A stretch of DNA of 64,000 nt from an uncultured Chloroflexia bacterium (GTDB lineage: Bacteria; Chloroflexota; Limnocylindria; Limnocylindrales; CSP1-4): NCBI GenBank assembly GCA_963763775.1, contig CAVXPZ010000003.1:128001-192000 (forward strand). The letters run 5' to 3'. The position numbers were made by a program, and so were the translations under genes. Shown here piece by piece: positions 29,882 to 59,492 of the stretch (its first letter is position 1; each line of letters opens with the position of its first letter). The notes under the pieces were generated by a model. The model had not been told where the DNA came from and did no database searches. It was given only the letters and a program-made list of their open reading frames with translations.

Positions 29882-29915
29882 GCACCATCCGACGTCTCTG
29901 CTATCGTCCGCGACG

Positions 29916-43865: not shown

Positions 43866-43898
43866 GCAAGGTGGCCGGCAAGGTTACTGTGTAGTACT
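43866..43898 (+). promoter_or_regulatory. Tandem direct-repeat regulatory motif upstream of tad cassette 1
   Basis: GCAAGGT-N5-GCAAGGT-N10-TACT; the same arrangement occurs at 47543 and 55349. Confidence 0.65.
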
Positions 43899-43923
43899 TG
43901 TCAGCCATCCCCCATCAGGACCT

Positions 43924-44584
43924 TTGGCATTGCCGCTTCGACGACGCCGGAATGATCGAGCCCGTGGCCAGTCCCTGGCCGAGTTCGCCCTCGTCTTCCC
44001 GTTCTTCATGGTCATCCTGTTCGGCGTCATCGAGTTCGCGTTCGTCCTGAACGCGTCCCTCTCGGTCGAGTTCGCGACGCGCGACGCGGCCCTCGCCGCC
44101 GCCGAGGCCGGCACCACCCCCGGCGCCGACTGCTCGATCCTCAAGGTGGTCGAGGCGAGCATCGGGGCGCCTGCCGACAAGGCGCGGATCCAGGAAGTGC
44201 AGATCTATCGGTCCGACGCAAGCGGCCGCGTGAATGAGAGTCAATTCCTACGCACGAACTGGTGTCACTGTCGAAGGTCCGAACGCGACTACATGTCTGA
44301 TGGCTGACGGCACCAAATTGACCGTGCCGTATTCGGCCAATTCCATCGCCTACAAGGCAACGTCTCGCTGCAACGTCGTCAAGGGCTGCTGCAAGGACGC
44401 CAGCGGGAACGTGGTCCCGTTCACCGACAGTTGCCCGCCGGGGACGACCTTTCGCACGCTCGACACCATCGGCGTGCGAATCGCGTATCGCCACAAGTGG
44501 GTCACCCCAGCAGGGAGCGTCGTCGGAAGCGGAAACTTGGACCTCGTCCAATCGAACACGATGCGGATGGAGCCAGTCCTTTGA
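43924..44584 (+). CDS. TadE-like minor pilin (frameshift near 44240)
   Basis: Class III prepilin motif RG|QSLAEFALVFP...EFA...ATRDAA; ends MRMEPVL. Confidence 0.85.
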
Positions 44585-45228
44585 GCCGAGCGCCGTCGCA
44601 TCGCCGAATGAGCCGATCCGGCCAGAGCCTTGTCGAGTTCGCCATCATCGTTCCGCTTTTCATGCTGTTGCTACTTGGCATGCTCGAACTCGGTCTGGCC
44701 TTCACTCATCATCAGACGCTTGAATACGCCACGCGGGAGGGAGCACGGACAGGATCCGCCCTTGCGAATGGGGGCGGAAAACTAGGTTGCGGTAGCGGGG
44801 GATCACCGAGTGCGGCGACCGTCGATCAGCAGATCGTGGCCGCCGTCGAGCGAGTCCTTACGTCCGAGGGCTCACCGGTCAAAGACAACTTGAGTCGGAT
44901 CCCCACCATCAGGATCTTTCTCGCGACGCCGACCGGCGGTGAGAGTGGCGCGAGCGTCGACGTGTGGAACTACAAGGCGGGAGCCGGGCCTGTCGTGGAC
45001 GGCAAAGCGCTTGATTACGTCGCCGGAACCACGAACTACCCTGCCTGCTCTCGGACATTCCAGCCACCGGCCCAGGCCCTGGGAGTCAGCCTCAAGTACA
45101 CATACCAGCTCCAGACTGGGCTGGGCGGCATCCTCGGCTTCTTCGGCGGCAAAGGCTGGACGTCGATCGCGATGAGCGATAGCACCGTCATGAATATCAA
45201 CCCGACCAATCTGAACTTCGTGCCGTGA
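44581..45228 (+). CDS. TadE-like minor pilin
   Basis: SG|QSLVEFAIIVPLF...LEYATREGARTG. Confidence 0.88.
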   Translation: MSRAPSHRRMSRSGQSLVEFAIIVPLFMLLLLGMLELGLAFTHHQTLEYATREGARTGSALANGGGKLGCGSGGSPSAATVDQQIVAAVERVLTSEGSPVKDNLSRIPTIRIFLATPTGGESGASVDVWNYKAGAGPVVDGKALDYVAGTTNYPACSRTFQPPAQALGVSLKYTYQLQTGLGGILGFFGGKGWTSIAMSDSTVMNINPTNLNFVP

Positions 45229-47351
45229 CGAGGACAACGATGTCGCTCAATCCATCGCATTCGGCCACTCGCGTGGGCCGATCGCGCTCGCGCGGTCAGG
45301 TCGTGGTGATCTTCGCGGGTGCCATCTTGGCATTCGTGGCGCTGTGCGCGATCGTGGTCGATGTGTCTTGGTATTGGGCCAATACCCTTCGTGTGCAGCG
45401 CGCCGCAGACGCCGCGGCATTGGCGGGAGCGGTCTACCTACCCAGCGACTCAGACACGGCCTTCTCCGAGGCGCGCGCGGCGGCCAAGCGAAACGGCTAC
45501 ACCGATAACCTTGGCGGCGTGACGATCAAGACCTGGATCGACGACAACGATCCGCGGCAACTCGACGTTCAGATCAACGGCAGCGTCGGTTCGTTCTTCG
45601 CTCACGCGCTCGGCATCAATGCGTGGCCCGTTTCGCGGACGGGTGAGGGTGTCTATATCCAGCCCGTGCCTATGGGAAGTCCAGACGCCTACTACGGGGT
45701 CGGTGACTTCTATACGAACGTGAGTTCGACAACGACCGATCGATACGCTTCGGTGTCTCGCTCGCCCTATCAGTCCTCCAACGGCGGCCAGTGGCTGAAC
45801 CCGAATAATGCGTGGACGACCAACAACAACTTCACGACCGAGGACACGAACAATCAAACGCAGGTCTGGCAGAACCTCCAGATGCCCGCGATCCAGGGTG
45901 ACACCCTCGACGGAATCGTGGTGTCGTTCAGCGCCAAGGTGAGCGCTGCGTCGGCCGCCTGCAAGGTCCAGGCGGAGATTTCGTGGAACTCCGGCAATAC
46001 GTGGAACAACGCCAACCCGAAGCTCTTGAGCGGAAACCTGACGACCGCGTTGGTGTCATATCCAGTCGGTGACGCTGGCTCGCTGGCCGTTTGGGGGAAC
46101 AACAACGCCTGGGATGCGACGGACCTAGCGAATGGCGTCTTTCGTGTCCGTCTGAACTACCAGAAGGGCAACGGCTGCGGAACATTGTCCCTGAACTCGC
46201 TCACGGTGACGGCCTATTCGCATACGGACACGACGACCGTGACCCTGACAAAGTCGGTCGTCAAAGACCCGAACAACGTCGTACTCCCCAGTCGAGGCGG
46301 ATGGGGCGCGGTCATCACGCGCGGCGGCAACCAGGAGAACGGCGACGCGTACAGCCCCGAGAACGACGGCGGCGCATCCAATGGCATCTACGACTCCGGC
46401 GGCTACGACTACATCGTGAGCCTTCCGGCCGGCGGCACCGTCAATGTCTTCGACCCGGGGTTCTGTGCCATGGGGCAGGTGGCTGCAGGGAGCATCGGCA
46501 CGGGTGATCACTGGATCGCGGGTGCGTCCAACGATGTGTCCACCTACTACACGCTGTGGAATACCGGCGGCAAGCCAGGTCTACGGAGCACCTGGACGAG
46601 GCTCTACACCTCGGGACCGCTATTCGAGCGACAGCACGGCTATGACCCCGTGAACAACCTGAACCCCCCAAACGGTGCAACCAAGGGTTGTGACGCGTAT
46701 CACAACGGCTGGTGGACCATCCCCACCGGGAATCTTCTAGCCGGCCAATACGCCGTGCAAGTGCAGACGTCCAAGACCGCACCGCCTTCGACATCGGCGG
46801 ATGGTTCGATCAATGCCTCAACCAACGCCGAGAACATGTTTGCCCTCGAGGCGATCGGCGGGGGGAGCCCCCAGATCTACGGAAACGGCCGAATGGCCGT
46901 TTACAACAACCTTCGCCAAGGAAGTCCGACGCAGCAGTTCTACTTGGCGCAGATCGACCGACCGACTGGCGCAAGCAAGACGGCCCTCATCGACATCTTC
47001 GATCCGGGTGACGTCGCCGGTGAAGCGACGCTGAAGGTGCTCAGCCCGAACGGTGGCGGCCAGTCCGAAGCTACGTTCAGCTACACCACGGACGGCAACT
47101 GCAACGCCGGCGTCAGTGATGCGTGCTCTGGGTTGAATGTGAAGCAGCTGAAGACCGCCACCAACGGCAGGTCAAGCTTCAACAACACCTGGATCCACAT
47201 CAGCATCCCATTGCCGGCCAGCTATGGTGCGGGCGGGCTCTGGCAGGGCGGATGGTGGCAAATCCAATACATCACGCCCAACGGCGGAAATGACACCACC
47301 ACGTGGCAGGTCAACATCCAGGGCAATCCTGTGCACTTGGTCGTCCCGTAA
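45225..47351 (+). CDS. TadG-like pilus tip/adhesin protein, 708 aa
   Basis: RG|QVVVIFA...VDVSWYW...QRAADAAALAGA, followed by a long Gly/Asn/Thr-rich beta region with Cys pairs. Confidence 0.85.
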   Translation: MTRTTMSLNPSHSATRVGRSRSRGQVVVIFAGAILAFVALCAIVVDVSWYWANTLRVQRAADAAALAGAVYLPSDSDTAFSEARAAAKRNGYTDNLGGVTIKTWIDDNDPRQLDVQINGSVGSFFAHALGINAWPVSRTGEGVYIQPVPMGSPDAYYGVGDFYTNVSSTTTDRYASVSRSPYQSSNGGQWLNPNNAWTTNNNFTTEDTNNQTQVWQNLQMPAIQGDTLDGIVVSFSAKVSAASAACKVQAEISWNSGNTWNNANPKLLSGNLTTALVSYPVGDAGSLAVWGNNNAWDATDLANGVFRVRLNYQKGNGCGTLSLNSLTVTAYSHTDTTTVTLTKSVVKDPNNVVLPSRGGWGAVITRGGNQENGDAYSPENDGGASNGIYDSGGYDYIVSLPAGGTVNVFDPGFCAMGQVAAGSIGTGDHWIAGASNDVSTYYTLWNTGGKPGLRSTWTRLYTSGPLFERQHGYDPVNNLNPPNGATKGCDAYHNGWWTIPTGNLLAGQYAVQVQTSKTAPPSTSADGSINASTNAENMFALEAIGGGSPQIYGNGRMAVYNNLRQGSPTQQFYLAQIDRPTGASKTALIDIFDPGDVAGEATLKVLSPNGGGQSEATFSYTTDGNCNAGVSDACSGLNVKQLKTATNGRSSFNNTWIHISIPLPASYGAGGLWQGGWWQIQYITPNGGNDTTTWQVNIQGNPVHLVVP

Positions 47352-47371
47352 AGGCTGAGCACACGGTTGAG

Positions 47372-47437
47372 GCCAACGACACCACGACCTGGCAGGTCAG
47401 CGTCAAGGGCAACCCGGTCCACCTGATCCTTCCCTAG
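47372..47437 (+). pseudogene. Orphan 3' end of a displaced TadG-like gene
   Basis: Encodes ANDTTTWQVSVKGNPVHLILP*, 20 bp after the stop of ...GNDTTTWQVNIQGNPVHLVVP*. Confidence 0.85.
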
Positions 47438-47542
47438 GCCGTCGGACGGCCGCCCACGACCCCTCGGTATCGGGCCGGTGTGTGCCCATGTCCGCCGGGC
47501 CGGTGCGCCCATCCACCAGTGATTGACCCCGGGCCCTTGTGT

Positions 47543-47575
47543 GCAAGGTCTGGCGCAAGGTACCTCTGTAGTACT
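47543..47575 (+). promoter_or_regulatory. Tandem direct-repeat regulatory motif upstream of tad cassette 2
   Basis: GCAAGGT (47543)-N5-GCAAGGT (47555)-N10-TACT. Confidence 0.65.
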
Positions 47576-47600
47576 TGTCGCCCATCCCCCATCAGGACCT

Positions 47601-48188
47601 TTGGCATTGCCGCTTCGACGACGCCGGAATGACCGTGAACGAGGCCAATCCCTGGCCGAGTTCGCGTTGGTCTTCCCGTTCTTCATCGTCATCCTGTTCG
47701 GCGTCATCGAGTTCGCGTTCGTCTTCAACGCGTACCTCTCGATCGACTTCGCGACGCGGGATGCCGCGCTGGCGGCAGCCGAAGCCGGCAACGACACCGG
47801 CGCCGACTGCTCGATCCTGCGGGCGATCGAGCGGAGCATCGGCGCGCCGGCCGACAAGGGCAGCATCGCGAAGGTCCGGATCTTCAAGGCCAGCACGACC
47901 GGTGCCAACCTCGGTCCGACCAACGTCTACACCCGGACCGGCGCGACCCCGTGCCCGGACGGGTCGGGCAGCATCCCGTACACCATCCAGTCCACCGGCT
48001 ACGCCGAGTCCGCGCGTTGCAACATCCTCGCCGGCTGCGGTCCAGGGTCCCTGACGGTCGACACGATCGGCGTCGAGATCACCTACACGTACGCCTGGAA
48101 GACGCCGTTGGCCCGCCTCCTGCCGATGAGCGGCAATGGCTACACGATGATCAAGGACAACGCGATGCGGATGGAGCCGGTCCTGTGA
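47601..48188 (+). CDS. TadE-like minor pilin
   Basis: RG|QSLAEFALVFPFF; paralog of the 43924 gene; ends MRMEPVL. Confidence 0.88.
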   Translation: MALPLRRRRNDRERGQSLAEFALVFPFFIVILFGVIEFAFVFNAYLSIDFATRDAALAAAEAGNDTGADCSILRAIERSIGAPADKGSIAKVRIFKASTTGANLGPTNVYTRTGATPCPDGSGSIPYTIQSTGYAESARCNILAGCGPGSLTVDTIGVEITYTYAWKTPLARLLPMSGNGYTMIKDNAMRMEPVL

Positions 48189-48763
48189 CCCGCGGGCGTC
48201 GTCGCGGCCAGAGCCTCGTCGAGTACGCGGTGACGGTCCCGGTCTTCCTCCTGATCCTGCTCGGCCTGCTGGAGTTCGGCTTCGCGTTCTCCCATCACCT
48301 GACGATGGAGTACGCGTCGCGCGAAGGCGCCCGCGTCGGCGCCGCCCTGGCCAACGGCACCGACCAGTTCCCGTGCGCAAAGGTCGACGACCAGGTCATC
48401 GCGGCGGTCCAACGCGTCCTTGTCGCGTCGGGCTCCCAGATCGACCTCAGCCAGGTCAAGGAGATCCGCATCTACAACGCGAACAACGTCAACGGGAACG
48501 AGGGGTCGCAGGTCAACCGGTGGCGACCCGGGACCGGCCCGGTCGTGCCAGGCGAAACGCAACCGCTCAAGTTCGCCTTCTTCTCGGGCAACTGGTCGGC
48601 ATGCAATCGCGTGAACGCCGCCGACCCGGACTCCATCGGCGTCGCGGTCTCCTACACCTACCGCTTCGTGACGCCGCTCGCGTCGCTCATGCGGATCGCC
48701 GGGCCGGCGGTGCTGCAGATGAACGACCGGACCGTCATGGCCCTCAACCCCACCGTACCGTGA
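48185..48763 (+). CDS. TadE-like minor pilin
   Basis: RG|QSLVEYAVTVP...MEYASREGARVG; paralog of the 44581 gene. Confidence 0.88.
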   Translation: MTRGRRRGQSLVEYAVTVPVFLLILLGLLEFGFAFSHHLTMEYASREGARVGAALANGTDQFPCAKVDDQVIAAVQRVLVASGSQIDLSQVKEIRIYNANNVNGNEGSQVNRWRPGTGPVVPGETQPLKFAFFSGNWSACNRVNAADPDSIGVAVSYTYRFVTPLASLMRIAGPAVLQMNDRTVMALNPTVP

Positions 48764-51055
48764 GCGTGCGATCGATGGAACCGATGACGAGCAGCGCGAC
48801 CACGGGCCGCCGCCACCGACCCCGCGGCCAGGTCCTCGTGATCTTCGCGGGCGCGCTGTTCCTGCTGATGATGATGGCCGCCATCGTCATCGACGTCTCC
48901 TGGTACTGGGTCAACTCGCTCCGTGTCCAGCGCGCCGCGGATGCGGCGGCGCTCGCGGGCGCCGTGATGCTCCCCAATGACCCGTCCACCGCCTACACGC
49001 TGGCCCGTGATGAGGCCAAGCGCAACGGGTACGTGCCCGGGGCCGTCGCGGGCGGCAACATCGTCATCACGCCGCTCCAGGACGGCGGCAACCCGCGTCG
49101 CCTGGACGTGACGATCTCGGCTCCGGTCGGGACGTTCTTCATGAAGGTGATCGGCATCCCGTTCATCAACGTGACCCGGACCGCCAAGGCGGAATTCACG
49201 CTCCCCGTGCCGATGGGCAGCCCGCAGAACTACTACGGCGTCGGCATCCTCAACGTGCCCACGGTCACCAGTAGGGCCACCGGCTGGCGCATCCGCAACA
49301 ACGAAGTCGGCAACTGGACCAACGCGATGCAGGCCGACAGCACGATCAGCAACTCCAGCAGCCAGTGGGCCGCGTCTCCGACCGGGAACAGCCCCCAACA
49401 GCAGTGGACCGAATTCGGCCTGGAGAACGGCGCCAACGCCGTTCCGAACGACGCGTCGCTCGAGGTCCTCGGGATCGAAGTCCGGTCACGCGCGTTCCTC
49501 CAGGGCAGCGGCAATTCGACCAGCGGCTGCCAGATGAGCGTCCAGCTGTCGTGGAACAACGGGAATAGCTGGACGACAGCCGAAGCGCAGAACAACCTGC
49601 CGACGTCGCCACCGCCGACCACGCCGGTCTCGGCGACCGTCCCCTACAACGTGAACCTGGGCAGCAATGCCGACGACTGGAACCACACCTGGTCGTATGA
49701 CGACCTGACGAGTACCGGCAGCTCCAGCTTCCGGGTGCGCGTGACGTTCAACAACCAGGCGGGGAACTGCTCCAACAGCCGGACCCTGGCGATCGACACC
49801 CTCGAGGTCCAGGTGTCCTGGCGTGTGACCGGCCCGCCGACGCCCCAGCCCGTCAAGGACCCGTACAACGCCGGGGTCCTCGCCCCACAGAAGTTCTGGG
49901 GCGCGATGCAGAGCCAGGGTGCGCCGAGCGTCCAGGGCGACGCCTTCATGACCGGCTATGAGACCCGGAAGTCCACGACCAACTCCGAGTACCACCCGTT
50001 GCAGGGCTACGGCGGCAGCTCGCAGGAGTACTACGACTACGGGGTCGAGCTCCCCGGGGGCGGCGGCGAGGTCTGGATCTACGACCCGGGGTTCTGCGAC
50101 ACCGGCTTGTACGGCTCGGGCAACAACGTCACGAACCAGGGAACCGGCGAGAGCTGGACCGTTGGTGGCTCGAATGGCGCGGATCCGGCCCGACCGGTCA
50201 GCGCGCAATACGTCCTGTACGACACGAACGGCACGCCCTACGAGTACGGCGACGATCCCGTCAAGGCGTCGTCCGGGAGCACGTTCCGACGGATGATGCT
50301 GTCCGATCCGAATCTGAGCGGCGGGTCAGGCGGGAGCTACCCGGGTGTCTCGAGCTGCGCAGGCCTCGCGTGGCACGACAACTGGTGGCGTCTCGCGAGC
50401 GGTCTTCCTGCCGGGACGTATCGGCTGCACACCACCTCCCGCATCTACAACCCGTTCGTGACCCCGAAGACGATCGATGGCTCGGACGACCAGACCGACT
50501 CGACCGGGTTGAACGCCTTCGCGATCTGGGTCAATTCGAGCAGCGGCAAGCCGCGGGTCTACGGCCTCGGGGCGATGGAGGCGTACTTCCCGCTGCCGGG
50601 CAACCAGACCTCGGTCTTCTACCTCGCGCAGATCGACAAGGTCCATGCCGGCAAGTGGGTCGACATCGACCTCTGGGACCCTGGGGACACGGGTTCACTC
50701 TCGGCGACCCTGCAGGATCCTGGCTCCCGATGGGGGCAGCGGGTCGATCCAGCCGTTCTACTGGAACGCCTGGACCGGGACGGACCTGCCGTCGAACTTC
50801 ACGTGTGGTCCGACCACCAGCAATCAGACGCAGAGCATCGTGACGAGCAACGGCAGCGGCGGCATCTTCAACGGCCGATGGCTGCGGATCTGCTTCAAGC
50901 TCGATGACAACTACGCCGCGCCGCTCGACCCGACGTTCAACGAGCCGGGGTGGTGGCGGATCAGTTACCAGATGACCGGCAGCGGCGCGAGCACCGACCT
51001 CACCACCTGGAAGGTCACCGTCCGCGGCAACCCCGTCCACCTCGTCATCCCGTAA
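48760..51055 (+). CDS. TadG-like pilus tip/adhesin protein (frameshift near 50715)
   Basis: RG|QVLVIFA...IDVSWYW..SLRVQRAADAAALAGA; ends TTWKVTVRGNPVHLVIP; paralog of the 45225 gene. Confidence 0.85.
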
Positions 51056-51118
51056 CGGACGGTCCAGGCACGACGGTGGCCCGCTGGGCCACCGTCGCCA
51101 TGCGGCATACTCCCGGGC

Positions 51119-51835
51119 ATGTTGAGCACGCCGCGGCCGCGGATCCTGCTCGTCGACGACGACCCGAGCCTGCTCGTGGCGCTCGCCGAACTGCTTCGCA
51201 ACGACGGGTTCGTCGTCACGACCGCGCGGGACGGCGATGAGGCGCTGCGTCGCCTCGACCAGGGCTGGCCGGACCTCCTGATCATCGATCTGCTGATGCC
51301 CCGCATGGACGGCCTCAGCCTCGCCCGCGAGATCAAGGCCCGGGCCGACCTGCCGATCATCGTGCTGTCGGCCATCGACGCCGGCGACAACAAGGCGGAC
51401 CTCCTCGACGAGTTCGCCGAGGACTACATCACCAAGCCGTACCACTATGCGGAGCTCCGCGCCCGGATCCACCGCGTGCTGCGCCGGGTGGGCGACCGTG
51501 TCCCGCGCCAGGCCGTCCGCGTGGGCCCGGACCTCGTCCTCGAGCTGCATCGCCGCCAGGCGGTCGTCGGCGGCCAGGAGGTCGCGCTCACGCCGACCGA
51601 GTCGCGCCTGCTGTTCGCCCTGGCGGCGAACATCGGGCGGACCGTCACCACGGAGACGCTGCTGTCGCGTGGCTGGGCCGAGACCGACGAGGCCGACCCG
51701 TCCTATGTGTGGGTCACGATGCGACGCCTCCGCCAGAAGATCGAGGTGGACCCGAATGCCCCGCGCCATCTGCTGACCGTGCGCGGCGTCGGCTACCGAC
51801 TCGTCGGCGAACCGACGACGGGAGGCACGCCCTGA
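51119..51835 (+). CDS. OmpR/PhoB-family response regulator
   Basis: ILLVDDD, DLLIIDLLMPRMDG, DYITKP; winged helix LTPTE...RLRQKIE.DP..PRHLLTVRGVGYRL. Confidence 0.95.
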   Translation: MLSTPRPRILLVDDDPSLLVALAELLRNDGFVVTTARDGDEALRRLDQGWPDLLIIDLLMPRMDGLSLAREIKARADLPIIVLSAIDAGDNKADLLDEFAEDYITKPYHYAELRARIHRVLRRVGDRVPRQAVRVGPDLVLELHRRQAVVGGQEVALTPTESRLLFALAANIGRTVTTETLLSRGWAETDEADPSYVWVTMRRLRQKIEVDPNAPRHLLTVRGVGYRLVGEPTTGGTP

Positions 51836-51909
51836 GCGGCCCGCCCATCGGGGACGGCGCGACCGAACCGCCGCCGACGTCTCCGCCCACGGCCGACCCG
51901 GACTGGCCG

Positions 51910-53366
51910 ATGCTCGACCTCTCTCCGCCGACCCCACGACGGCCGCCGCGGGAACCGGCCCAGTCGCGGTTCTCCTACCAGACTCGCCTGACGCTCGCGA
52001 TCGTCGCGGCCGCCGTCGTCCCGCTCGGCGCTGTTCGGGATCCTGCTGATCGTGACCGGGACGCTGGACCCGCAGCTCGGTGGGCGCATCCTGCTGTTCG
52101 TCGTCGCGGTGACGGTCGTCCTCGCCATCGTCGTCGGGTACGCCCTGAGCCTGAGCCTCATCGAGCCGCTCCGGGACATCGCGGACGCCGTTCGACGCGT
52201 GAGCGATGGCGACCTGTCGCAGCCGATCCCGGTCAACGGCTCCGACGTGCTCGCCCAGCTCGCGGAGAGCCACAACCGGCTCGTGGCCGACGCGGAGCGT
52301 CGCAACCGTCAGCTCGGCATGATCCTCGCCGCCGTCGAGCGCGCCTCCCCCGAGGACGGGACGGAAGCCCTCGCCGACCGGGCGACACGCGACGCGGAGG
52401 AGATCTTCGAGCTCATCGCCGGCGCGATCACGTTCACCGACCCGAAGGCCGTGCCCGAGGTGGAACGCGTCCCCGGCGACCCCCTGACCGTCCGCGCGGA
52501 CATGCGCGTCGGCGACCAGCCGATCGGCGTGCTGATCGGGCGGCTGCCGGCGACGAGGACCTGGGAGCGTGCCGATCAGGCGCTCTTCGAGCTCTATGGG
52601 AGCGAGATCGCGGCCGCCGTCCGGAACGCCCAGCTGTTCGCGCAAGTCGAGGCCCAGAACGCCCAGCTCCGCCAGCTCGACGAGGCGAAGGACGACTTCC
52701 TCCGAGGCGTCAGCCACAACCTCCAGACGCCGCTGACGCGGATCAAGGCCAACGCCGAGGGCCTCGAGCGCACGGTCGACGACCCACGGCTCGGGAGCAT
52801 CAGCGACCAGGCGGACCGGCTGTCGCGGATGGTGGCGCAGCTGCTCCTGGTCGGCCGGCTCGGCTCGGGCCAGCTCCGGCCGCAGGCGGACGTCATCGCC
52901 GTCGGGGCGCGGATCCGACGCGCGTGGGACGCGCTCGCCGCGGAAGGCCGGGCGTTCGACCTCGACGACGCGTCGGGCGGCTGGCTGGCCGTCGCCGACG
53001 GCGACCAGCTCGACCAGGTCCTGTGGGCGCTCCTCGACAACGCGGTCAAGTACGGCGAGGGCGGCGTCGACGTCGCGATCGGCGCCGACGACGAGGGCCG
53101 CCGCGGTGTGGGCCACGATCACGTCCGGCGGGCCGGGTCTCACCGAGGCGGATCGCGAGTGGCTCTTCGAACGATTCGCCCGCGGTGCGACCGGTCGCGC
53201 GACCGGCGACGGGAGCGGTCTCGGCCTGTACGTCTCCCGGGCGCTGATGCGAGGCATGGACGGCGATCTCGACCTCGACCCCGCCGAGCCCGGACGTGGC
53301 GCTCGGTTCCGGCTGACCCTTCCCGGCGAGCCGCCACCGGTCGACGCGGAGTCCGGGCGTGGCTGA
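51910..53366 (+). CDS. Sensor histidine kinase (2 TM, HAMP, GAF-like, HisKA, HATPase; frameshifts near 52030 and 53100)
   Basis: HAMP EPLRDIADAVRRVSDGDL; H-box VSHNLQTPL; N-box LLDNAVKY; G-boxes GPGL...LFERF...GSGLGL. Confidence 0.88.
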
Positions 53367-53502
53367 GCGGAATTCTGTGGCGCGTTCGCGCACCACTGGT
53401 GCACCGAATCCACCACGGCGGCGACCGGAGCGGCGAGACTGTAGGGGACGCCGTGCGCACCCGCGGCTACGTACGACGACGCCCGACACCGAGGTCCAGA
53501 CG

Positions 53503-54490
53503 ATGACGGAACAAGAACGACGACGCCGACGGTCCGTGCACCTGCGGATCGGCGCGGTCCTGGCCCTCTGCCTGGTCGGCGCCGTGCCGGTCGTCGTCGC
53601 GATGGCCGCGTCACCCGACCCCGGTTCGTCGGCGCCGACCCGCGGCTCCTGCCGCCACCGCCGACCCGTCCGGCACCACGAGCAAGCCGGCCGGCGACGG
53701 CAAGGGCGGCCTCCGGCTCGACCTGCGCGGGTTCGGTGGCGGGATCGATCTCGGCCGCGGCGGGATCACGATCACCGCGATCAACGGCTCGAGCATCTCC
53801 CTCAAGACCGATGACGGCTGGACGCGGACGATCACGGTCACGCCGGACACCAAGATCCGGAAGGGCGGCCAGGACGCGACGGCCGCGGACCTCGCGGTTG
53901 GCGACAAGATCCGGCTCGCCCAGAAGCGCAACGACGACGGCACCTACACGGTGACCGCGATCGCGGTGCCGACGCCGAGGACGGGCGGCGAGGTCAGCGC
54001 CATCAGCGGCGACACGCTCACGCTGAAGCGTCGGAACGGCGAGACCCAGACGGTCACCCTGACCGGCTCCACCAAGTACACCTTCGGCAAGGATGCCGGG
54101 ACCAAGGCCGACGTCACGGTCGGGTCGCAGGTGACGGTCGAGGGCACGACGTCCGGGACCGACTTCACCGCACTCTCGGTCCACGTCCAGCCGACCGTCG
54201 TCGCCGGCGAGGTCACCGCCAAGACAGCCACCAGCCTGACGCTGAAGCAGCGCGACGGCTCGACGATCGTCGTCCATGTCTCGGCCGACACCAAGTACGG
54301 GCTCCGCGGCGGCAAGACCGGCGGACTGGCCGATATCGCCGTCGGCGACAAGGCGTGGGCCTCGGGCAAGACCCGCGGCGACGGCTCGCTCGATGCGACC
54401 GGCGTCGCCAACGGGTTCGGCCGTGGCAAGGGCGACCACAAGGACGCGAAGCCGGGTTCCTCGGCCGCACCGAGCGCGACGGCCGGCTGA
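53503..54490 (+). CDS. Secreted/membrane-anchored repeat protein (DUF5666-like OB-fold repeats; frameshift near 53640)
   Basis: N-terminal TM, then three repeats of the form IT(A/V)I.G..(I/L)TLK..dG...T(I/V).V...TK....ADL.VG..V. Confidence 0.7.
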
Positions 54491-54526
54491 TCGACGGCTT
54501 CGCCGTCAACGGTTACGATCGCTCGC

Positions 54527-55237
54527 GTGAGCTGGGACGCCGCGCCTGATCCGCGCCCGCAAGGACCGCCCAGCGGTCGTCGTGAGGCGGTCGAACTGAT
54601 CGGGACCCACCTGCGTCTCGATGGGGTCATCTCGCTCCATCGATTCAACCGCCTGTCCGACCTGATCAACTCGTCGAGCGGCTACGTCCGCATCCAGAAC
54701 GCCCGCCTGCTCCGGCGCAATGGCGACCCGACGACCCTGGTCCTCCCGGAGCTGATGGTCGACCAGGACGAGATCTCGTTCATCGCGGCCATCGAGGCGG
54801 ACGAGTCCATCGATGACGCGAACACGGCCCGACCGTTCGGCGGCGTCTCGGCGGACGACGGCAGCTCGAGACGGACGTCTGGGCCGGTCTCGGCGCCGCA
54901 GCACCCGGCGGTGGCGACGTCTGGGGCGCCCCGGGTGGCGGGACGCTCGTCCGGCGGCGGCGCCATCGAGCGTCCGCCGCGCGAGTTCGTGATGTTCACG
55001 CCGGGCCATTCGATCACCGGCAAGGTCCAGGTGTTCGGTGGAACGGACCTCGCGGGCTTCGTCGATGCGAGCGAGCCCCGGTTCGTCCCGGTGACGGATG
55101 TGGTCGCCCGCTCTCTGGCGGATCGCCGGATCATCAGCCACTTCTCGTTCGTGCTGATCAACCGGACGCACATGATCGCGGCGTCCGAGATCGGACGTTC
55201 CGGCGACATCAGCCACGAGGACGTCCCGGACCTCTAG
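54527..55237 (+). CDS. Hypothetical protein with two similar small beta domains (DUF6812-like)
   Basis: HLRLDGVI...RLSDLIN...YVRIQNA and HSITGKV...DLAGFVD...RFVPVTDV...FVLINRTH, joined by a low-complexity linker. Confidence 0.6.
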   Translation: MSWDAAPDPRPQGPPSGRREAVELIGTHLRLDGVISLHRFNRLSDLINSSSGYVRIQNARLLRRNGDPTTLVLPELMVDQDEISFIAAIEADESIDDANTARPFGGVSADDGSSRRTSGPVSAPQHPAVATSGAPRVAGRSSGGGAIERPPREFVMFTPGHSITGKVQVFGGTDLAGFVDASEPRFVPVTDVVARSLADRRIISHFSFVLINRTHMIAASEIGRSGDISHEDVPDL

Positions 55238-55348
55238 GCGCGCCATCCGGGGCACGTGCCGGACGGCCGCGATGGTGTCTGCCGTCACCACGGGCGGTAG
55301 GTCGTGGTGCGCTTTGGTGGGGTCTGGACCCGTACTGATGGGCTAGCC

Positions 55349-55381
55349 GAAAGGTCCTGCGCAAGGTCCCGGTCCCATACT
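55349..55381 (+). promoter_or_regulatory. Tandem direct-repeat regulatory motif upstream of tad cassette 3
   Basis: GAAAGGT (55349)-N5-GCAAGGT (55361)-N10-TACT. Confidence 0.55.
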
Positions 55382-55467
55382 CGACCCCTGATGTCGTGCG
55401 CCGGGGGGCATGCGTCATCCATACGACGCCAACGCGTCGTCATCCTCGCGACCCAGGGACCCCCCGG

Positions 55468-57078
55468 ATGCCACACCTCGTCCCCACCGACGCCCCCACG
55501 CGTCGGCGCCGCCCGCTCCTCCCGACCGCCCGATCGACGTCCCGCCCGCGCGGGACCCGGCGCAGCCGTGGGCAGGCCCTCGTGGAACTCGCCCTCGTCA
55601 CGCCCCTCCTGTTGCTCCTCTTCGCCGCGGCCGCCGACCTCGGCCGTGCCTTCTATGCCTATGTCGCCGTCGAGAACGCCGCGAAGGAAGGCGCGCTCTT
55701 CGGCTCACGCGCGCCGCTCTGCGACGCCAGTACGGGCGGGGCGTGCACCGATCCGAACAACGTCACGTGGCATGTGCAGCAGGAGCTCCAGAACCTGCGT
55801 ATGCCCGACGGGACGACGCCGGTCCCGACGGTCCAGTGCCTCGATGCGAGCAACGGGGCACCCCGAACCGCGCTGAAGGACTGCGCCGAGGGCGATACCT
55901 ATGCCGTCGGCGTCCAGGTGCCGTTCAAGATGCTGACACCGGTCCTCGGCAGCCTCATCGGGAACCTTCAGATCGCGTCGACGTCGCGCGCGGTCGTCCT
56001 GAACCTCGCCTTCGACCCATCGCCGGGTTTGAGCGTCCAGAAGTTCGTGCAGCCTACCGGCGCCATCAATGCCTCGGCGATCACCTCGAAATGCCTCGAC
56101 CCAAACGACCGCGATGCGGCCGGCTACTACCGCAGCCCGTGCCTCGACCTCTCGACGCCGGATCCGACCGACAAGCTGTGGGTGCACTTCGAGCAAGGCG
56201 ACACGATCGCGTACAAGATCGCCTTGCGGAACACGGGGGCGCAGAACCTGTCCGGCATCACGGTCGTCGATTCGCGCGGCTCGACCGGTTGCTCCTTTCC
56301 CACGTCGCTCGCCGCGGGTTCCTCGGCCTTCACCTGCACCTACACAAGGACGGCGCCGACCGTTTCCGGCGTGCCCGACTCGATGGACTACGCGAACACC
56401 GTCACGGTGGACTCGTCCGGGACCTTGCCGTCGCAGGACGGCGTCACCGTCGTCGTCGAGCGCCCGCCAGCCGAGTTCCAGGTCCTCAAGTGGGTGAGCC
56501 CGTTCAAGGAAGGTGACGACGGCGACGGGACGCCCGGGTTCGGGACGCAACCCACGGTGGCCGTGAGCTACAGCGCGCAGATCCCGCAGCCCGCGGTCTG
56601 GTTCAAGGTCATCGTCCGGAATGTCGGAGGGCGGACGGCCAGCGCGGTCGCGATCGCCGACTCCCACGGGGCCCTGCCATACGGACAGAACAACGCCACG
56701 GCCGTCTGCGACGCGGCTCCGACGAGTCTGGCCGCGAACGGGATCTTCCAGTGCAGGTACCGCGTGACCTATGCCTCGGCGCAGGTGGCCACGAACACGG
56801 TGTCGGCGACGAGTCCGGACGTCACGCCCGACAGCAACGACACGGCCACCGCGACGGCCACGGTCACGGCGTGCACCGGCGCCACTCGGGTCGTGCCGGA
56901 CCTGATCGGCCTGGCCAAGGCCGCAGCCCAGACCGCCTGGACCAGCGCCGGGTTCACCGGCACCTTGTCCGTCTGGAGCGGTCAGCCGAGCGCCACGGTC
57001 GTGACCCAGACGCGCCCGGCGTACGGCTGCATCGCCGCCAACTCGACGATGACGATCGGAAGGACGACCACGCCATGA
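55468..57078 (+). CDS. TadE-like pilin fused to two Ig-like (DUF11-like) repeats and a PASTA-like domain
   Basis: RG|QALVELALVTP...VENAAKEGA; two repeats (V.K...Y/FKI..RN.G...PTSLAA...C.Y...NTV); C-terminal VVPDLIGL...AGF...VVTQ. Confidence 0.8.
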   Translation: MPHLVPTDAPTRRRRPLLPTARSTSRPRGTRRSRGQALVELALVTPLLLLLFAAAADLGRAFYAYVAVENAAKEGALFGSRAPLCDASTGGACTDPNNVTWHVQQELQNLRMPDGTTPVPTVQCLDASNGAPRTALKDCAEGDTYAVGVQVPFKMLTPVLGSLIGNLQIASTSRAVVLNLAFDPSPGLSVQKFVQPTGAINASAITSKCLDPNDRDAAGYYRSPCLDLSTPDPTDKLWVHFEQGDTIAYKIALRNTGAQNLSGITVVDSRGSTGCSFPTSLAAGSSAFTCTYTRTAPTVSGVPDSMDYANTVTVDSSGTLPSQDGVTVVVERPPAEFQVLKWVSPFKEGDDGDGTPGFGTQPTVAVSYSAQIPQPAVWFKVIVRNVGGRTASAVAIADSHGALPYGQNNATAVCDAAPTSLAANGIFQCRYRVTYASAQVATNTVSATSPDVTPDSNDTATATATVTACTGATRVVPDLIGLAKAAAQTAWTSAGFTGTLSVWSGQPSATVVTQTRPAYGCIAANSTMTIGRTTTP

Positions 57079-57542
57079 CGCCCGAACGGACCCACCGGCG
57101 ACGTGGGCAATCCCTCGTCGAATTCGCCCTGGTCCTCCCGATCTTCGCCATCCTGCTGTTCGGCATCATCGACTTCGGCCGGTTCGTGTACGCGGCCAAC
57201 GCCCTGAACAACGGTGTCCGTGAGGGTGCCCGCTCCGGCTCCGTCACGATCCGACCGTCACCGCTTTGCGACGGTCTGAGCCGCGATGCGTGTGTCAAGG
57301 CGGTCGTCGCCAACCTCTCCTGGGGCGTCCCGGGCAGCTCGATCACCACGACGGTGACCTGTGAGCGCGTGGTCCCGAACAACCCGACGCCGCAGCCGGT
57401 CATCCCGATTTCGGGCTGCCGCACCAACGACCTGCTGCGGGTGAAGGCCACGGCGCCGTTCACGCTCGTGACACCGCTCATCGCGCAGTTCCTCGGCGGA
57501 CGGACGCTCTCCGGCGAAGCCCTGGTCACCGTGAACCAATGA
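57075..57542 (+). CDS. TadE-like minor pilin
   Basis: RG|QSLVEFALVLPIF...DFGR...VREGAR. Confidence 0.88.
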   Translation: MTPERTHRRRGQSLVEFALVLPIFAILLFGIIDFGRFVYAANALNNGVREGARSGSVTIRPSPLCDGLSRDACVKAVVANLSWGVPGSSITTTVTCERVVPNNPTPQPVIPISGCRTNDLLRVKATAPFTLVTPLIAQFLGGRTLSGEALVTVNQ

Positions 57543-57592
57543 TCCGCGCCACCCGCCCTCTCGTCCCCTCGCGACCCTCGAAGGAGCCCCCG

Positions 57593-58696
57593 ATGCGCCT
57601 CGCCCGCTCTCCACGTTCCCGATCGCCACGCGGCCAGATCCTGGTGATCGTCGCGGGCGGCCTGATCGGACTGCTCGCCATCGGCGCGTTCGCCCTCGAG
57701 GGTGGCACGCTGGTCCTCAATCGTCGCGATGGGCAGAACGCCGCCGATCTCGCCTCCTTGGCCGGCACCCGGATGGTGGCCTTGAGCCACACGGCGTCGG
57801 CGACCGGCGCCGACGTGTTCACGGCCATCCAGGGGTCGCTGGACAGCAACGACTGCCATGCAGCTTCGGGGACGCCGTGCACCTGGACCGCGCGGTTCGT
57901 CGGGGCCGGCCTCGCCGACCTCGGGGCGGTCTCCGGCAGCGGGACCGTGCCAGGGGCGGCGCTCGGCGTGCGGGTCGGCGTCACCCGCCAGCCCGGCGCC
58001 ATGCTGGGCCGAATCCTCGGGTTCGACCACTGGACCGTCACGACCGAGGCCACGGCCATCGCCGCCGAGCCGTCCCAGTTCCCCACCGGGATCCTGCTCC
58101 CGATCGCCCTCTGCGGTTGGGGACAGACGGGCGTCAATGACTGTCTGCAGGCTTCGAACAGTCCGGCCAACGTCATCAAGTTCCAGCCCAACCAGATCTA
58201 CGACATCACGGACGGCATGGATGCCCCGGGCGGGTTCGGCTGGTTGTCCTGGACGGGATCGAACTCAGCGGGCGCCCTTTCAGACAGCATCTGCACCCCC
58301 GACAACATCGGTTTCTCCCTCGACAACCCGTTCAATTCCCCCGGTACCTACAGCGGGACGCCCGGGACCAACCCGGCGGACGGGGAGACATGGTTCCCCG
58401 CCGATCCCGGGAAGTCGAACAAGGCCTCGATGCGAGCCTGTCTCGACGGGTGGATCTCCAGTCGAGCGACCGTCCTCATCCCCGTCTACGACATCGTCAC
58501 GGGCAATGGCAACAACGCCGCGTATCACATCACCGGCGTCGCGGCGTTCGTCTTGACATCGCGGGAGCAGCCAGCCGTCGACAACATCCAGGGTTACTTC
58601 GTGCAGTACTACCCGTACACGGACGTCCCGGGTGGGCTGGGGACCCAGCCACCAGGGCCGGACGACACGACGTACTTCCTGGGTCTCGTGAAGTAG
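57593..58696 (+). CDS. TadG-like pilus assembly protein
   Basis: AAGGAG RBS; RG|QILVIVA...RRDGQNAADLASLAG; PGGFGWLSW...VLIPVYD...YHITGVAAF. Confidence 0.82.
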   Translation: MRLARSPRSRSPRGQILVIVAGGLIGLLAIGAFALEGGTLVLNRRDGQNAADLASLAGTRMVALSHTASATGADVFTAIQGSLDSNDCHAASGTPCTWTARFVGAGLADLGAVSGSGTVPGAALGVRVGVTRQPGAMLGRILGFDHWTVTTEATAIAAEPSQFPTGILLPIALCGWGQTGVNDCLQASNSPANVIKFQPNQIYDITDGMDAPGGFGWLSWTGSNSAGALSDSICTPDNIGFSLDNPFNSPGTYSGTPGTNPADGETWFPADPGKSNKASMRACLDGWISSRATVLIPVYDIVTGNGNNAAYHITGVAAFVLTSREQPAVDNIQGYFVQYYPYTDVPGGLGTQPPGPDDTTYFLGLVK

Positions 58697-59453: not shown

Positions 59454-59492
59454 GGTCCGTAGCCTAGCGGGCCGACCACATGGTCCGTGCGG

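Follow-up and report, generated by a model that had tools for sequence, protein, structure and literature searches.

Gene content of the array

The window, that is, the whole 64-kb stretch of DNA that was analyzed, contains three tadE-tadE-tadG triplets arranged around a two-component system. The nine genes of these triplets encode six TadE proteins and three TadG-type proteins with a Tad domain, as assigned by Pfam search. The features of the array are the following (window coordinates).

43866..43884, plus strand: direct-repeat element 1 (GCAAGGT-N5-GCAAGGT), 58 nt 5' of the 1a start, 0 mismatches; candidate regulator-binding site
43866..44182, plus strand: 5' anchor of cassette 1, comprising the repeat element and leader together with about the first 86 codons of 1a, start codon included
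43924..44584, plus strand: 1a, TadE-like pseudopilin, Ea type (Pfam); frame broken at 44236 as assembled
44581..45228, plus strand: 1b, TadE-like pseudopilin, Eb type (Pfam); TTG overlaps the 1a stop, alternative ATG at 44608
45225..47351, plus strand: 1c, TadG-like large pilin, 708 aa, type I clade (Pfam, tree); no Glu at +5
47374..47437, plus strand: orphan TadG 3' end (..NDTTTWQVSVKGNPVHLILP*), from alignment to the 3' ends of the L005 TadG gene and 1c
47543..47561, plus strand: direct-repeat element 2, 58 nt 5' of the 2a start, 0 mismatches
47601..48188, plus strand: 2a, TadE-like pseudopilin, Ea type (Pfam)
48185..48763, plus strand: 2b, TadE-like pseudopilin, Eb type (Pfam); GTGA overlap with 2a
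48775..51055, plus strand: 2c, TadG-like large pilin, about 758 aa, type II clade, N part resembling type I (Pfam, tree); frame broken at 50716 as assembled
51119..51835, plus strand: OmpR/PhoB-family response regulator, REC and winged helix (Pfam)
51900..53366, plus strand: histidine kinase with HAMP, HisKA and HATPase_c domains (Pfam); frame broken near 53112-53122, start uncertain
53503..54490, plus strand: secreted DUF5666 protein (Pfam); signal-peptide part and body in different frames
54527..55237, plus strand: DUF6812 protein (Pfam); accompanies the array in 11 of 77 loci
55349..55367, plus strand: direct-repeat element 3, 5' of cassette 3, 1 mismatch
55468..57078, plus strand: 3a, TadE-like pilin, 536 aa, with DUF7507/DUF11 Ig-like repeats (Pfam)
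57075..57542, plus strand: 3b, TadE-like pseudopilin, 155 aa (Pfam); ATGA overlap with 3a
57539..58696, plus strand: 3c, Tad-domain pilin, 367-385 aa, of another family, G3 (Pfam); no Glu at +5

Translational coupling within the triplets, proposed in the sequence-only reading of this DNA, is borne out by the junctions, which consist of stop/start overlaps (TTGA at 44581, GTGA at 45225 and 48185, ATGA at 57075 and 57539) or, before 2c, of an 11-nt gap with no overlap.

Protein families and prepilin signals

The TadE proteins match PF07811 (gathering cut-off 22.9 bits) with 46.6 (1a), 62.5 (1b), 48.9 (2a), 54.5 (2b), 48.5 (3a) and 63.8 bits (3b), and the large proteins match PF13400 (Tad; cut-off 22.3 bits) with 27.7 (1c), 34.4 (2c) and 28.7 bits (3c), the domain being followed by a large C-terminal extension. 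Among the relatives, TadE was matched by 73/73 Ea and 73/73 Eb proteins, and Tad by 61 of 62 TadG proteins; a search of the array proteins against NCBIfam added only sub-threshold TadE-like matches. A class III prepilin-like motif, consisting of a basic leader, [R/S]GQ and a hydrophobic helix, is present in 9/9 proteins, as had been claimed. In the TadE proteins, it takes the form RGQS(L/A)(A/V)E, with Glu at +5 in 6/6 and cleavage predicted from the motif; Glu+5 is missing in all three TadG proteins (1c, 2c and 3c).

The C-terminal region of TadG belongs to no recognized family. Pfam detected no vWA (MIDAS-bearing) family in 1c, 2c or 3c at E <= 0.01, sequence searches against solved structures gave no usable relative, and the protein atlas returned Tad-domain clusters only, with no match for TadG residues 336-703. 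The 700-aa TadG family comprises 1,118 clusters (50% identity, E <= 1e-30), and its distal domain is without a solved or annotated member.

The description of the locus as three cassettes of one kind is an oversimplification, since cassette 3 belongs to a different type of module. Cassettes 1 and 2 are paralogues of each other in a sense that does not extend to cassette 3: 3a is a TadE protein of 536 aa with DUF7507/DUF11 repeats, and the part common to 3c and the 700-aa TadG family is limited to the N-terminal 65 residues.

The response regulator contains REC and Trans_reg_C domains and shares 91% identity with its syntenic counterpart in L005; the kinase contains HisKA and HATPase_c, with the ATPase domain in another frame (Pfam). 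No NCBIfam equivalog was found; the best match, MtrA, scored 171 bits (cut-off 300).

Cassettes 1 and 2 are old paralogues with a homogenized 5' end

The identity between cassettes 1 and 2 around the ribosome-binding site and start codon was reproduced: positions 43905-43955 equal 47582-47632, exactly over 51 nt, with no extension of the exact match on either side. This match is embedded in a 319-nt tract that is 86% identical (43866-44182 and 47543-47859). Also confirmed are the divergent middles and the conserved ends noted previously (MRMEPVL*, VM.(I/L)NPT and GNPVHL..P*), with amino-acid identities of 119/193 (1a/2a), 90/190 (1b/2b) and 274/677 (1c/2c). Identical four-fold sites number 32/44 in the 5' anchor versus 22/61 in 1b/2b and 60/159 in 1c/2c.

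Phylogenetic analysis places the parts of these cassettes differently. In the N part of Ea, 1a and 2a agree at 68 of 82 residues and are sisters in the tree, their identity to any of the other 77 Ea proteins being at most 63-69%. In the C part, 1a is the sister of L005 (97*), and a 1a+2a clade is rejected (AU test, p = 0.00024). The large pilins 1c and 2c are placed in different deep clades, which rules out cassettes 1 and 2 as recent duplicates. As judged from these comparisons, cassettes 1 and 2 are ancient paralogue types, the 5' 319 bp of which have been homogenized by gene conversion. Divergence is non-uniform: the 5' anchor is homogenized within the genome, and the remainder follows deep paralogue lineages.

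Cassette 1 has a low G+C content (0.615). Insertion of the entire cassette from a foreign source is not supported: 1c groups with the syntenic TadG proteins of L005, L036 and L039 (98*), and the grouping of the C part of 1a with L005 likewise runs counter to it.

Mosaic TadG genes

The TadG genes are domain mosaics. The 1c protein consists of a pilin N part, a hypervariable central part and a conserved C part, and the central domain, taken alone, has other nearest relatives than the rest of the gene. Entropy is lowest in TadG residues 21-160 and highest in residues 161-340, where indels are also most frequent; the latter region is absent from the 540-600-aa forms of the protein and occurs as 4-5 tandem copies in other proteins. 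Within arrays, TadG identity is 0.52-0.84 in the N part versus 0.22-0.41 in the central part. Thus, the large pilin combines a conserved alpha1N base with a variable distal domain, as do the tips of the Kil type discussed below. Recombination is further apparent from near-identical 5' parts of 1.6-1.9 kb that are joined to divergent TadG bodies in L020 (96.5% identity over 1918 nt) and in L059 (91.7% over 1635 nt).

The 64-nt orphan TadG 3' end between cassettes 1 and 2, which is identical to the 3' end of the L005 TadG gene at 51 of 55 positions and to that of 1c at 48 of 62, is a footprint of a past rearrangement. No reverse transcriptase or site-specific recombinase Pfam domain indicative of a diversity-generating retroelement (DGR), shufflon or invertase was found in the 140 + 19 ORFs of the window, and no tandem repeats were found within the array.

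Related loci and the Tad machinery

The TadE-TadE-TadG triplet is a conserved module across 77 related Limnocylindria loci. The set of three cassettes and its order are not preserved in the relatives, which have one to four modules of differing type at the glyK-nth locus, both the number and the type varying from one relative to another. More than three pilin-like ORFs were found in 27 of the 54 loci of at least 20 kb.

The absence of tad machinery from the window was confirmed. T2SSE, T2SSF, Flp and A24 peptidase domains are absent from the 140 ORFs outside the array (at least 90 aa, GC3 of at least 0.74); tblastn searches with flp, cpaB and tadZ/A/B/C of the relatives gave only receiver-domain matches to the response regulator; and a scan with a Flp-like motif recovered one true flp, in L046, and nothing but TadE genes within the window. 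A search for a TadA protein on a contig of 871,678 nt, the length of the one that contains the window, gave none among the 120 matches listed, the search having saturated at 8000 candidates. The window thus holds three triplets without machinery genes, an arrangement typical of tip modules of the Kil Tip1-4 kind. The connection to a Tad machine assumed in the sequence-only reading is seen in relatives and not in the 64 kb analyzed of the 871,678-nt contig. In L046, the triplet ends a complete operon, in the order HK-RR-flp-cpaB-tadZ-tadA-tadB-tadC-Ea-Eb-G; in L068 and L069, the order is tadA-tadB-tadC-OmpR RR-HK-[cassette-3 type]-Ea-Eb-G; and in six loci the triplet lies directly behind cpaB. 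Altogether, machinery genes adjoin the triplet in 9 of 77 loci, with none within 10 kb in the other 68.

A direct repeat common to the three cassettes

Co-regulation of the cassettes, part of the original proposal, gains support from a direct-repeat element common to all three. GCAAGGT-N5-GCAAGGT, with up to 2 mismatches, has 3 matches in 64 kb, one before each cassette, compared to 0.12 expected, and 3 matches were reached in 0/100 shuffles. In the related loci, 65 of 97 matches lie at most 400 nt upstream of a pilin-like gene, zones that make up at most about 4.4% of positions. The repeat was found within 400 nt upstream of 0/7 triplets located directly behind cpaB or tadC, and about half of the relatives' Ea genes are without it at up to 2 mismatches. 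At 3 mismatches, there are 14 matches in the window, the others lying mostly inside genes, and even then no copy precedes the regulator gene. The period of the repeat is 12 bp, whereas OmpR/PhoB sites usually have a period of 10-11 bp. A scan for consensus promoters and terminators, an Rfam search and RNA folding of the spacer found nothing. From its adjacency and the form of the repeat, we infer that the OmpR-type regulator may act on this element. Sharing of the element argues for co-expression of the cassettes, not for one tip chosen at a time.

Frame breaks

As assembled, 1a and 2c are frame-broken, which the sequence-only reading had missed. In 1a (break at 44236), the N part ends at a stop at 44307 and the C part occupies 44234-44584 in the next frame; accordingly, L005 Ea aligns to 1a in two frames (43966-44256 and 44243-44581). 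The remaining breaks are at 50716 in 2c and near 53112-53122 in the kinase, and the DUF5666 gene extends over two frames. Housekeeping genes are likewise broken, cca twice and glycerate kinase once, with the intact proteins of relatives as reference, so that the breaks in the array are probably long-read indel or assembly errors. Many of the related records come from long-read MAGs, in which genes are split in a similar way. Otherwise, the array ORFs are full length with one break each, have conserved ends and show GC3 of 0.78-0.85. Phase variation by frameshift is ruled out: the break sites lie outside repeats and homopolymers, and breaks of this kind also affect cca, with two, and the genes for glycerate kinase, the histidine kinase and the DUF5666 protein. 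Overall, the earlier gene identities, the prepilin signals and the 51-bp identity stand; the frame breaks, in the array and in housekeeping genes, and the different type of cassette 3 had been overlooked.

Interpretation and alternatives

We consider it likely that the locus, in a Limnocylindria-like Chloroflexota genome, comprises three minor-pilin modules of a Tad/Flp pilus, functioning at its tip or in its priming, that surround a two-component system, share a machine encoded elsewhere and recombine. Cassettes that lie behind the same control sequence and are reshuffled point to a repertoire of alternative pilus tips. The notion of a library of tip modules is partly supported, as regards variable modules, mosaicism and the shared element, but not as regards a single kind of cassette.

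Each module is a small operon for two TadE-type pseudopilins with Glu+5 and one large TadG-type pilin without it. Prepilin peptidase would cleave each protein after the Gly of RGQ, and the three N-terminal helices may then bundle into a heterotrimer that, by analogy, would prime Flp polymerization on the TadZABC machine encoded elsewhere and end up at the pilus tip, presenting the hypervariable central domain of the TadG protein. Given that all modules have the direct repeat at the place expected of a -35 element, they are probably switched on together, with the OmpR-type regulator inside the array as the most likely actor. Alignments and trees show that the modules evolve by recombination: the docking parts (promoter, TadE genes and TadG N domain) are homogenized within a genome by gene conversion, and the distal TadG domains remain deeply divergent and are exchanged, with module number shifting between relatives.

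The modules could instead be ordinary old paralogues, each with its own Tad machine and no tip exchange, recombination being what commonly befalls tandem paralogues. Vibrio vulnificus has more than one tad locus in its genome, further triplet loci exist elsewhere in related genomes (L005 + L034, L039 + L063), the 1c and 2c clades split before the sampled genomes diverged, and in some relatives both the Ea-Eb-G and the cassette-3 types lie beside machinery genes. However, 68 of 77 loci are free of machinery genes for 10 kb around the triplet, modules are more numerous than any machinery seen per locus, and one upstream element is common to all module types. Moreover, the N-terminal docking parts are homogenized within genomes, which is expected if one common partner must fit and unneeded if each module has its own machine. 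We therefore find this explanation unlikely. Even less probable is that the modules are pilin-like membrane-anchored surface adhesins or a short secretion pseudopilus, independent of the Flp fiber. Although most triplets are unlinked from flp and tadA, the Ig-like DUF11/DUF7507 repeats of 3a are typical of surface proteins, and the TadG C-terminal region is without a recognized family, the class III signal requires prepilin peptidase, the L046 triplet closes a flp-cpaB-tadZABC operon, and six triplets follow cpaB directly. In addition, the distribution of Glu+5 is that of tip complexes, such as the one containing GspK, where it is present in the small pilins and absent from the large one.

The breaks in 1a and 2c and in the kinase and DUF5666 genes would also follow if the array were a decaying graveyard of duplicated minor-pilin genes, with cassettes 1 and 2 and these two other genes as pseudogenes; if real, the breaks in two of the nine genes and the kinase would leave part of the array dead. 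The orphan TadG 3' end, the fragmentary modules in L062, L002 and L076 and the lower G+C content of cassette 1 fit decay as well. Against this stand the similar single-base breaks in cca and glycerate kinase, the split genes of the related long-read MAGs, the otherwise full-length ORFs with their conserved ends and GC3, and break sites free of repeats and homopolymers, so that we give decay only a slight chance. Returning to tip modules that share one machine, a more specific version can be proposed tentatively, namely, that Limnocylindria maintain a modular, recombination-driven tip repertoire in which docking parts (promoter, both small pilins and TadG N domain) are kept compatible with a single machine by gene conversion, distal TadG domains are exchanged inside a genome as well as with other genomes, whole modules come and go, and one two-component system turns on the entire repertoire via the conserved GCAAGGT-N5-GCAAGGT operator. 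This may be the case, but we would not call it probable.

Relation to known systems

In Neisseria, silent promoterless pilS copies donate to one expressed major pilin gene, pilE. The array resembles pilE/pilS in that gene conversion between conserved flanks diversifies pilin segments of a single locus, but here every module is equipped with an upstream element, a ribosome-binding site and a start codon, and the genes encode minor pilins. Silent-cassette antigenic variation of this kind does not fit the locus, where the modules are full length, with repeat and start codon, and the only truncated copy is the 64-nt TadG remnant. The PprAB two-component system, in the part of its description available, controls Flp/type IVb pili in Pseudomonas aeruginosa and is encoded beside tad genes; similarly, the HK-RR pair of L046 lies directly upstream of flp. 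The regulator in the window, in contrast, is of the OmpR/PhoB family, is located among minor-pilin modules rather than beside machinery, and has a predicted target.

Aggregatibacter TadE-TadF-TadG is a comparable set of two small pilins and one large pilin. Another such set is described in the tip model of CpaJ-CpaK-CpaL from Caulobacter crescentus, with two small minor pilins and one large pilin-like protein; CpaL combines a pilin module at its N terminus with an inserted region rich in beta structure, the tripartite tip complex is predicted, and the genes lie in or near tad loci (PMC12607857, available part). Two differences are that CpaL contains a MIDAS-bearing vWA domain, of which Pfam detects none in 1c, 2c or 3c, and that one set per machine, with no array, is described there (PMC12607857, same part).

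The closest known system is the set of Kil Tad-pilus tips of Myxococcus xanthus, with four interchangeable KilL/KilM/KilN (kilLMN) modules (Herrou et al. 2025, PMC12075869). According to the available part of that report, the likenesses comprise several paralogous TadE/TadF/TadG-type triplets per genome, mostly away from the machinery, a variable distal domain on the large TadG-type pilin with conserved alpha1N helix bases, and the proposed role as alternative tips on one pilus (PMC12075869). The systems differ in that the host here belongs to Chloroflexota, with no sign of predation or a T3SS partner, and in that the modules form an array that surrounds a two-component system at a single locus, with a common upstream direct repeat, and display gene conversion, domain mosaics and copy-number change. 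Genetic proof of alternative Tad pilus tips dates only from 2025 and comes from Myxococcus; as far as this part of the report goes, such tips were thought to be largely confined to predators, and the Kil tip families are reported to be restricted to Myxococcota by HMM search (PMC12075869).

No report of Tad minor-pilin arrays in Chloroflexota was found in the paper library searched. Within this phylum, Limnocylindria are a class that is abundant in soil and freshwater and for the most part uncultured, and the window locus and its 77 relatives suggest that the alternative-tip principle is widespread among them. New compared to the Kil tips are the tandem array of modules, the candidate operator shared by them beside a two-component system, and the traces of repertoire evolution, in the form of docking-part conversion, mosaic distal domains and module turnover. 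The analysis offers predictions as to which parts match the machine, which carry specificity and which DNA element exerts control. A recombination-driven repertoire, if it exists, would amount to population-level adhesin or receptor variation on minor pilins, with no dedicated recombinase needed.

Layout of the array and gene identities

Nine pilin-like genes form three a-b-c cassettes between an endonuclease III gene and a metallo-beta-lactamase-fold gene, and four further genes, assigned with Pfam, occupy the interval between cassettes 2 and 3. The G+C content of the window, about 71%, drops to 62-63% at 44-48 kb.

Genes of the array and its flanks (window positions)
42968-43807: endonuclease III gene, one flank
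43924-44584, 44581-45228, 45225-47351: cassette 1, genes 1a, 1b, 1c
47601-48188, 48185-48763, 48775-51055: cassette 2, genes 2a, 2b, 2c
51119-51835: OmpR/PhoB-type regulator, first gene of the interval
second gene of the interval: HAMP-HisKA-HATPase kinase
53503-54490: DUF5666 gene, third in the interval, product secreted
54527-55237: DUF6812 gene, fourth in the interval
55468-57078, 57075-57542, 57539-58696: cassette 3, genes 3a, 3b, 3c
58704-59453, minus strand: metallo-beta-lactamase-fold gene, other flank

The six a and b genes contain the TadE domain (PF07811) and the three c genes the Tad domain (PF13400), all above the Pfam gathering score. The prepilin-like motif described in the sequence-only reading is present in all nine proteins, as a basic leader followed by [R/S]GQ and a hydrophobic helix; the residue at +5 is Glu in all six TadE proteins and Ile in all three large proteins. 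A home-made profile of the pilin N-terminus selects all nine and no other gene anywhere in the window. The translational coupling proposed for the triplets agrees with the 4-nt overlaps or 11-nt spacing between adjacent cassette genes.

The conserved ends ascribed to cassettes 1 and 2 (MRMEPVL, VM.(I/L)NPT and GNPVHL..P) were likewise found. The 51-nt identity claimed between them (43905-43955 = 47582-47632) is exact and lies inside a 319-nt tract of 86% identity, outside which the two cassettes are at most about 74-84% identical, over short pieces. Identical residues number 119/193 in 1a/2a, 90/190 in 1b/2b and 274/677 in 1c/2c. Cassette 3 is a different kind of module: 3c shares only the first 65 residues with the family of 1c and 2c (large TadG-like pilins, denoted G), and the similarity of 3a and 3b to the cassette 1/2 type is confined to the pilin part. 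The 3c family is better conserved than the 1c family, with the closest relative at 82% identity.

Related loci and module families

The 1c protein (708 aa) is a member of a Tad-domain protein family whose members are about 700 aa long. It has 637 matches, of which the nearest shows 70% identity; what source names there are point to Chloroflexota or Candidatus Limnocylindrales. A profile of 100 members of this family recovered 1,118 clusters (50% identity) at E <= 1e-30 among 1.84 billion representatives. The scan of one genome per species yielded 77 related loci (L001-L077), nearly all of them in MAGs of Chloroflexota/Limnocylindria, and identity to 1c does not exceed about 60%. The arrangement Ea-Eb-G, with products of ~195, ~200 and ~700 aa, recurs across the loci, where Ea and Eb are the TadE-like pseudopilin types encoded by the a and b genes; tblastn matches to 1a/2a, 1b/2b and 1c/2c were detected in 70, 71 and 77 of the 77 loci, respectively. 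Ea and Eb are paralogous to each other over their full length (hhalign probability 100, E 1.3e-43).

Two loci labelled as other taxa, L017 (Candidatus Sulfotelmatobacter) and L056 (Candidatus Dormiibacterota), contain typical Ea-Eb-G or G genes that nest within Chloroflexota in the TadG tree, a sign of faulty binning or labelling, or of gene transfer. A fourth module type, consisting of one ~135-145-aa TadE protein and a 440-800-aa Tad-domain protein with the C-terminus ..ALVGGTKLI(Q/H)LP, occurs in relatives (L058, 12484-14265; also L067, L070, L075, L044, L035, L051 and L007). DUF5666 and DUF6812 form a conserved pair that accompanies the regulator/kinase pair and pilin modules; DUF5666 matches were found in 8/77 loci and DUF6812 matches in 11/77, and besides the window the pair was noted in L005, L036, L058, L062, L067, L070 and L075.

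Association with Tad machinery

As the sequence-only reading held, the window lacks Tad machinery: the 140 ORFs screened outside the array (minimum length 90 aa, minimum GC3 0.74) yielded no T2SSE, T2SSF, Flp or peptidase A24 domain, and a tblastn search of the window with relatives' flp, cpaB, tadZ, tadA, tadB and tadC matched nothing except the regulator's receiver domain. Several relatives encode the machinery and triplets together.

Machinery genes adjoining triplets in related loci (Pfam, flanks; HK, RR as annotated)
L046: HK, LuxR-type RR, flp, cpaB, tadZ, tadA, tadB, tadC, Ea, Eb, G
L068, L069: tadA, tadB, tadC, OmpR-type RR, HK, cassette-3 type (inverted), Ea, Eb, G
L015: tadZ-tadA-tadB divergent from cpaB, Ea, Eb, G

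In tblastn searches, nine of the 77 loci (L013, L014, L015, L029, L031, L046, L065, L068 and L069) have a machinery gene no more than 10 kb from a triplet, and none was found within that distance in the other 68. Judged by this pattern of linkage, the triplets are Tad minor-pilin sets, usually encoded apart from the machine.

Gene conversion, mosaicism and module turnover

A phylogeny of 64 G proteins joins 1c to the syntenic G of L005, L036 and L039 as its sister group (support 98) and places 2c in the other deep G clade, together with L077 and the G genes that stand in second position in L058, L055 and L061. Because 1c and 2c fall in separate deep clades, an origin of cassettes 1 and 2 as recent copies is out; by their placement, 1c and 2c are old paralogue types.

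The start regions of the two cassettes form the 5' anchor (43866-44182 and 47543-47859). Four-fold sites are identical at 32/44 positions in the first 90 codons of 1a/2a versus 10/25 in the remainder, with 22/61 in 1b/2b and 60/159 in 1c/2c. In its N part, 1a is identical to 2a at 68/82 residues and reaches at most 63-69% against any of 77 other Ea proteins; the C parts are nearest to L005 for 1a (0.67) and to L058 for 2a (0.58). The Ea N-part tree shows 1a and 2a as sisters (support 84.5). In the C-part tree the sister of 1a is L005 (97), and grouping 1a with 2a is rejected (AU p = 0.00024). On these comparisons, the 5' anchor is homogenised by gene conversion between cassettes 1 and 2, and the converted tract resembles the cassette 2 lineage.

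The G genes, judged by the nearest relatives of their parts, are domain mosaics. The N and C parts of 1c are nearest to L005, L036 and L039 (0.70-0.75), and its central part to L003, L004, L001 and L002 (0.50-0.54); the N part of 2c is nearest to type-I G of L075, L067, L070, L062 and L058 (0.71-0.75), and its C part to L077 and type II (0.52-0.56). Within relatives' arrays, identity is 0.52-0.84 for G N parts, 0.22-0.41 for central parts and 0.34-0.73 for C parts. This pattern is sharper still in some relatives. In L020, 96.5% identity extends over 1,918 nt (from the upstream region through Ea and Eb into the first ~430 nt of G) and is followed by divergent G bodies that end in an identical 40-nt 3' end; in L059, identity is 91.7% over 1,635 nt, and in L064, L053 and L072 the ~410-nt G N-terminus is 85-88% identical. 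An orphan 64-nt G 3' end is located directly past the 1c stop (47374-47437); it agrees with the L005 G end at 51/55 positions and with the 1c end at 48/62.

Alignment of the syntenic locus across relatives, as the sequence-only reading had proposed, revealed variable cassette number and content. Uniform divergence without mosaicism would have spoken against that reading; both non-uniform divergence and mosaicism were seen in cassettes 1 and 2 and in relatives.

Modules at the syntenic locus of relatives
L005, L036, L039: one Ea-Eb-G
L058: Ea-Eb-G, two-gene module, second Ea-Eb-G
L062, L067, L070, L075: one triplet and one or two two-gene modules or fragments
L020, L051: two triplets
L059: three triplets

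L005 and L062 also contain cassette-3 types. In 27/54 loci of at least 20 kb the number of pilin-like ORFs exceeds three, a count that split ORFs may inflate. No recombinase, reverse transcriptase or repeat tract was found among the window ORFs or in the array; general homologous recombination is enough to account for the changes.

Anatomy of the large pilin

Among 100 members of the G family, residues 21-160 are conserved, variability and indel content peak at residues 161-340, and conservation is moderate over residues 340-703, with the last 20 residues the most conserved overall. Many relatives of 540-600 aa align in two stretches, without the central part. This part (~180-340) is present in five tandem copies in P0320 (1426 aa) and in four in P0377 (798 aa), and given these tandem copies it behaves like a repeat domain that can be separated from the rest. 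Neither the central nor the C-terminal part is accounted for by a Pfam family, a solved structure or an atlas cluster. The layout of the 1c-type pilin recalls CpaL of Caulobacter, in which a pilin module is combined with inserted beta-rich domains and with a split vWA domain (PMC12607857); unlike in CpaL, no vWA domain is detectable in the large pilins of the window.

A repeat element shared by the modules

Alignment of the regions 5' of Ea genes identified a direct repeat, GCAAGGT-N5-GCAAGGT. Allowing up to 2 mismatches, the window contains three copies (43866, 47543 and 55349), each just before a cassette, against an expectation of 0.12; three copies were reached in 0/100 shuffles. Across 1.46 Mb of loci, 65/97 matches lie no more than 400 nt upstream of a same-strand pilin-like gene, in zones whose estimated share of positions is about 4.4% at most (400 nt for each of 324 genes, both strands). 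The repeat precedes every module type (Ea-Eb-G, two-gene E-G, cassette-3 type and lone G), including the fourth type of relatives, and is absent before all seven triplets located directly 3' of cpaB or tadC.

An OmpR-type regulator neighbours the modules in 28/77 loci. This frequent proximity and the direct-repeat form at the position of a -35 element suggest that the repeat is a candidate binding site of the regulator; in the window, no copy precedes the regulator gene itself. The shared element argues for modules being expressed together, not one at a time. A 402-aa ORF (59464-60672) with no Pfam family contains, in its 3' part, three loose GCAAGG-type copies (59518-59623, minus strand), which are probably a coding repeat rather than a control element.

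Frame breaks and other features of the window

As assembled, 1a changes frame at 44236, 2c at 50716 and the kinase gene near 53112-53122, and the signal peptide and body of the DUF5666 protein are in separate frames, with the break at about 53650 (the L005 orthologue is a single ORF); intact relatives' proteins align to all four as successive pieces in different frames. The genes for the CCA-adding enzyme (30458-31815; three frames, two breaks at about 31020 and 31139) and glycerate kinase (41903-42954; two frames, one break at about 42470) are broken alike, with intact L030/L006 homologues aligning piecewise; no repeats occur at the break sites of the array genes; and similarly split genes are found in many related records, which are long-read MAGs. 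We therefore read the breaks as probable assembly indels, the rate of which seems to be roughly one per 10 kb, and not as a sign of pseudogenes or phase variation.

An HNH endonuclease gene (29796-30428) immediately precedes the gene for the CCA-adding enzyme and is a conserved neighbour in 15 related loci. The window also encodes a partner-switching module, a GAF-SpoIIE phosphatase with HATPase_c_2 followed by a STAS-domain protein (624-2580), and several ECF-type sigma factors (16.6, 34.6 and 60.6 kb).

A putative repertoire of pilus-tip modules

In the literature covered, largely outside the subscription journals, we found no report of Tad minor-pilin arrays of this kind in Chloroflexota. 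In GspK of type II secretion, Glu+5 is missing and the subunit is located at the very tip; the absence of Glu+5 from the large pilin would fit such a position. The pilin-like proteins would be cleaved by a prepilin peptidase, and the three proteins of a module may form a trimer at the pilus tip, with the neighbouring two-component system as the likely regulator of the modules.

From sequence comparison and analogy, the array is best read as a repertoire of minor-pilin modules that would serve as tips of a Tad pilus. Such a repertoire would resemble the four KilLMN tips of Myxococcus xanthus (PMC12075869). The modules would use one machine: homogenised N-terminal parts and divergent distal parts are the pattern expected if all modules dock onto one fibre and machine, each displaying a different surface.
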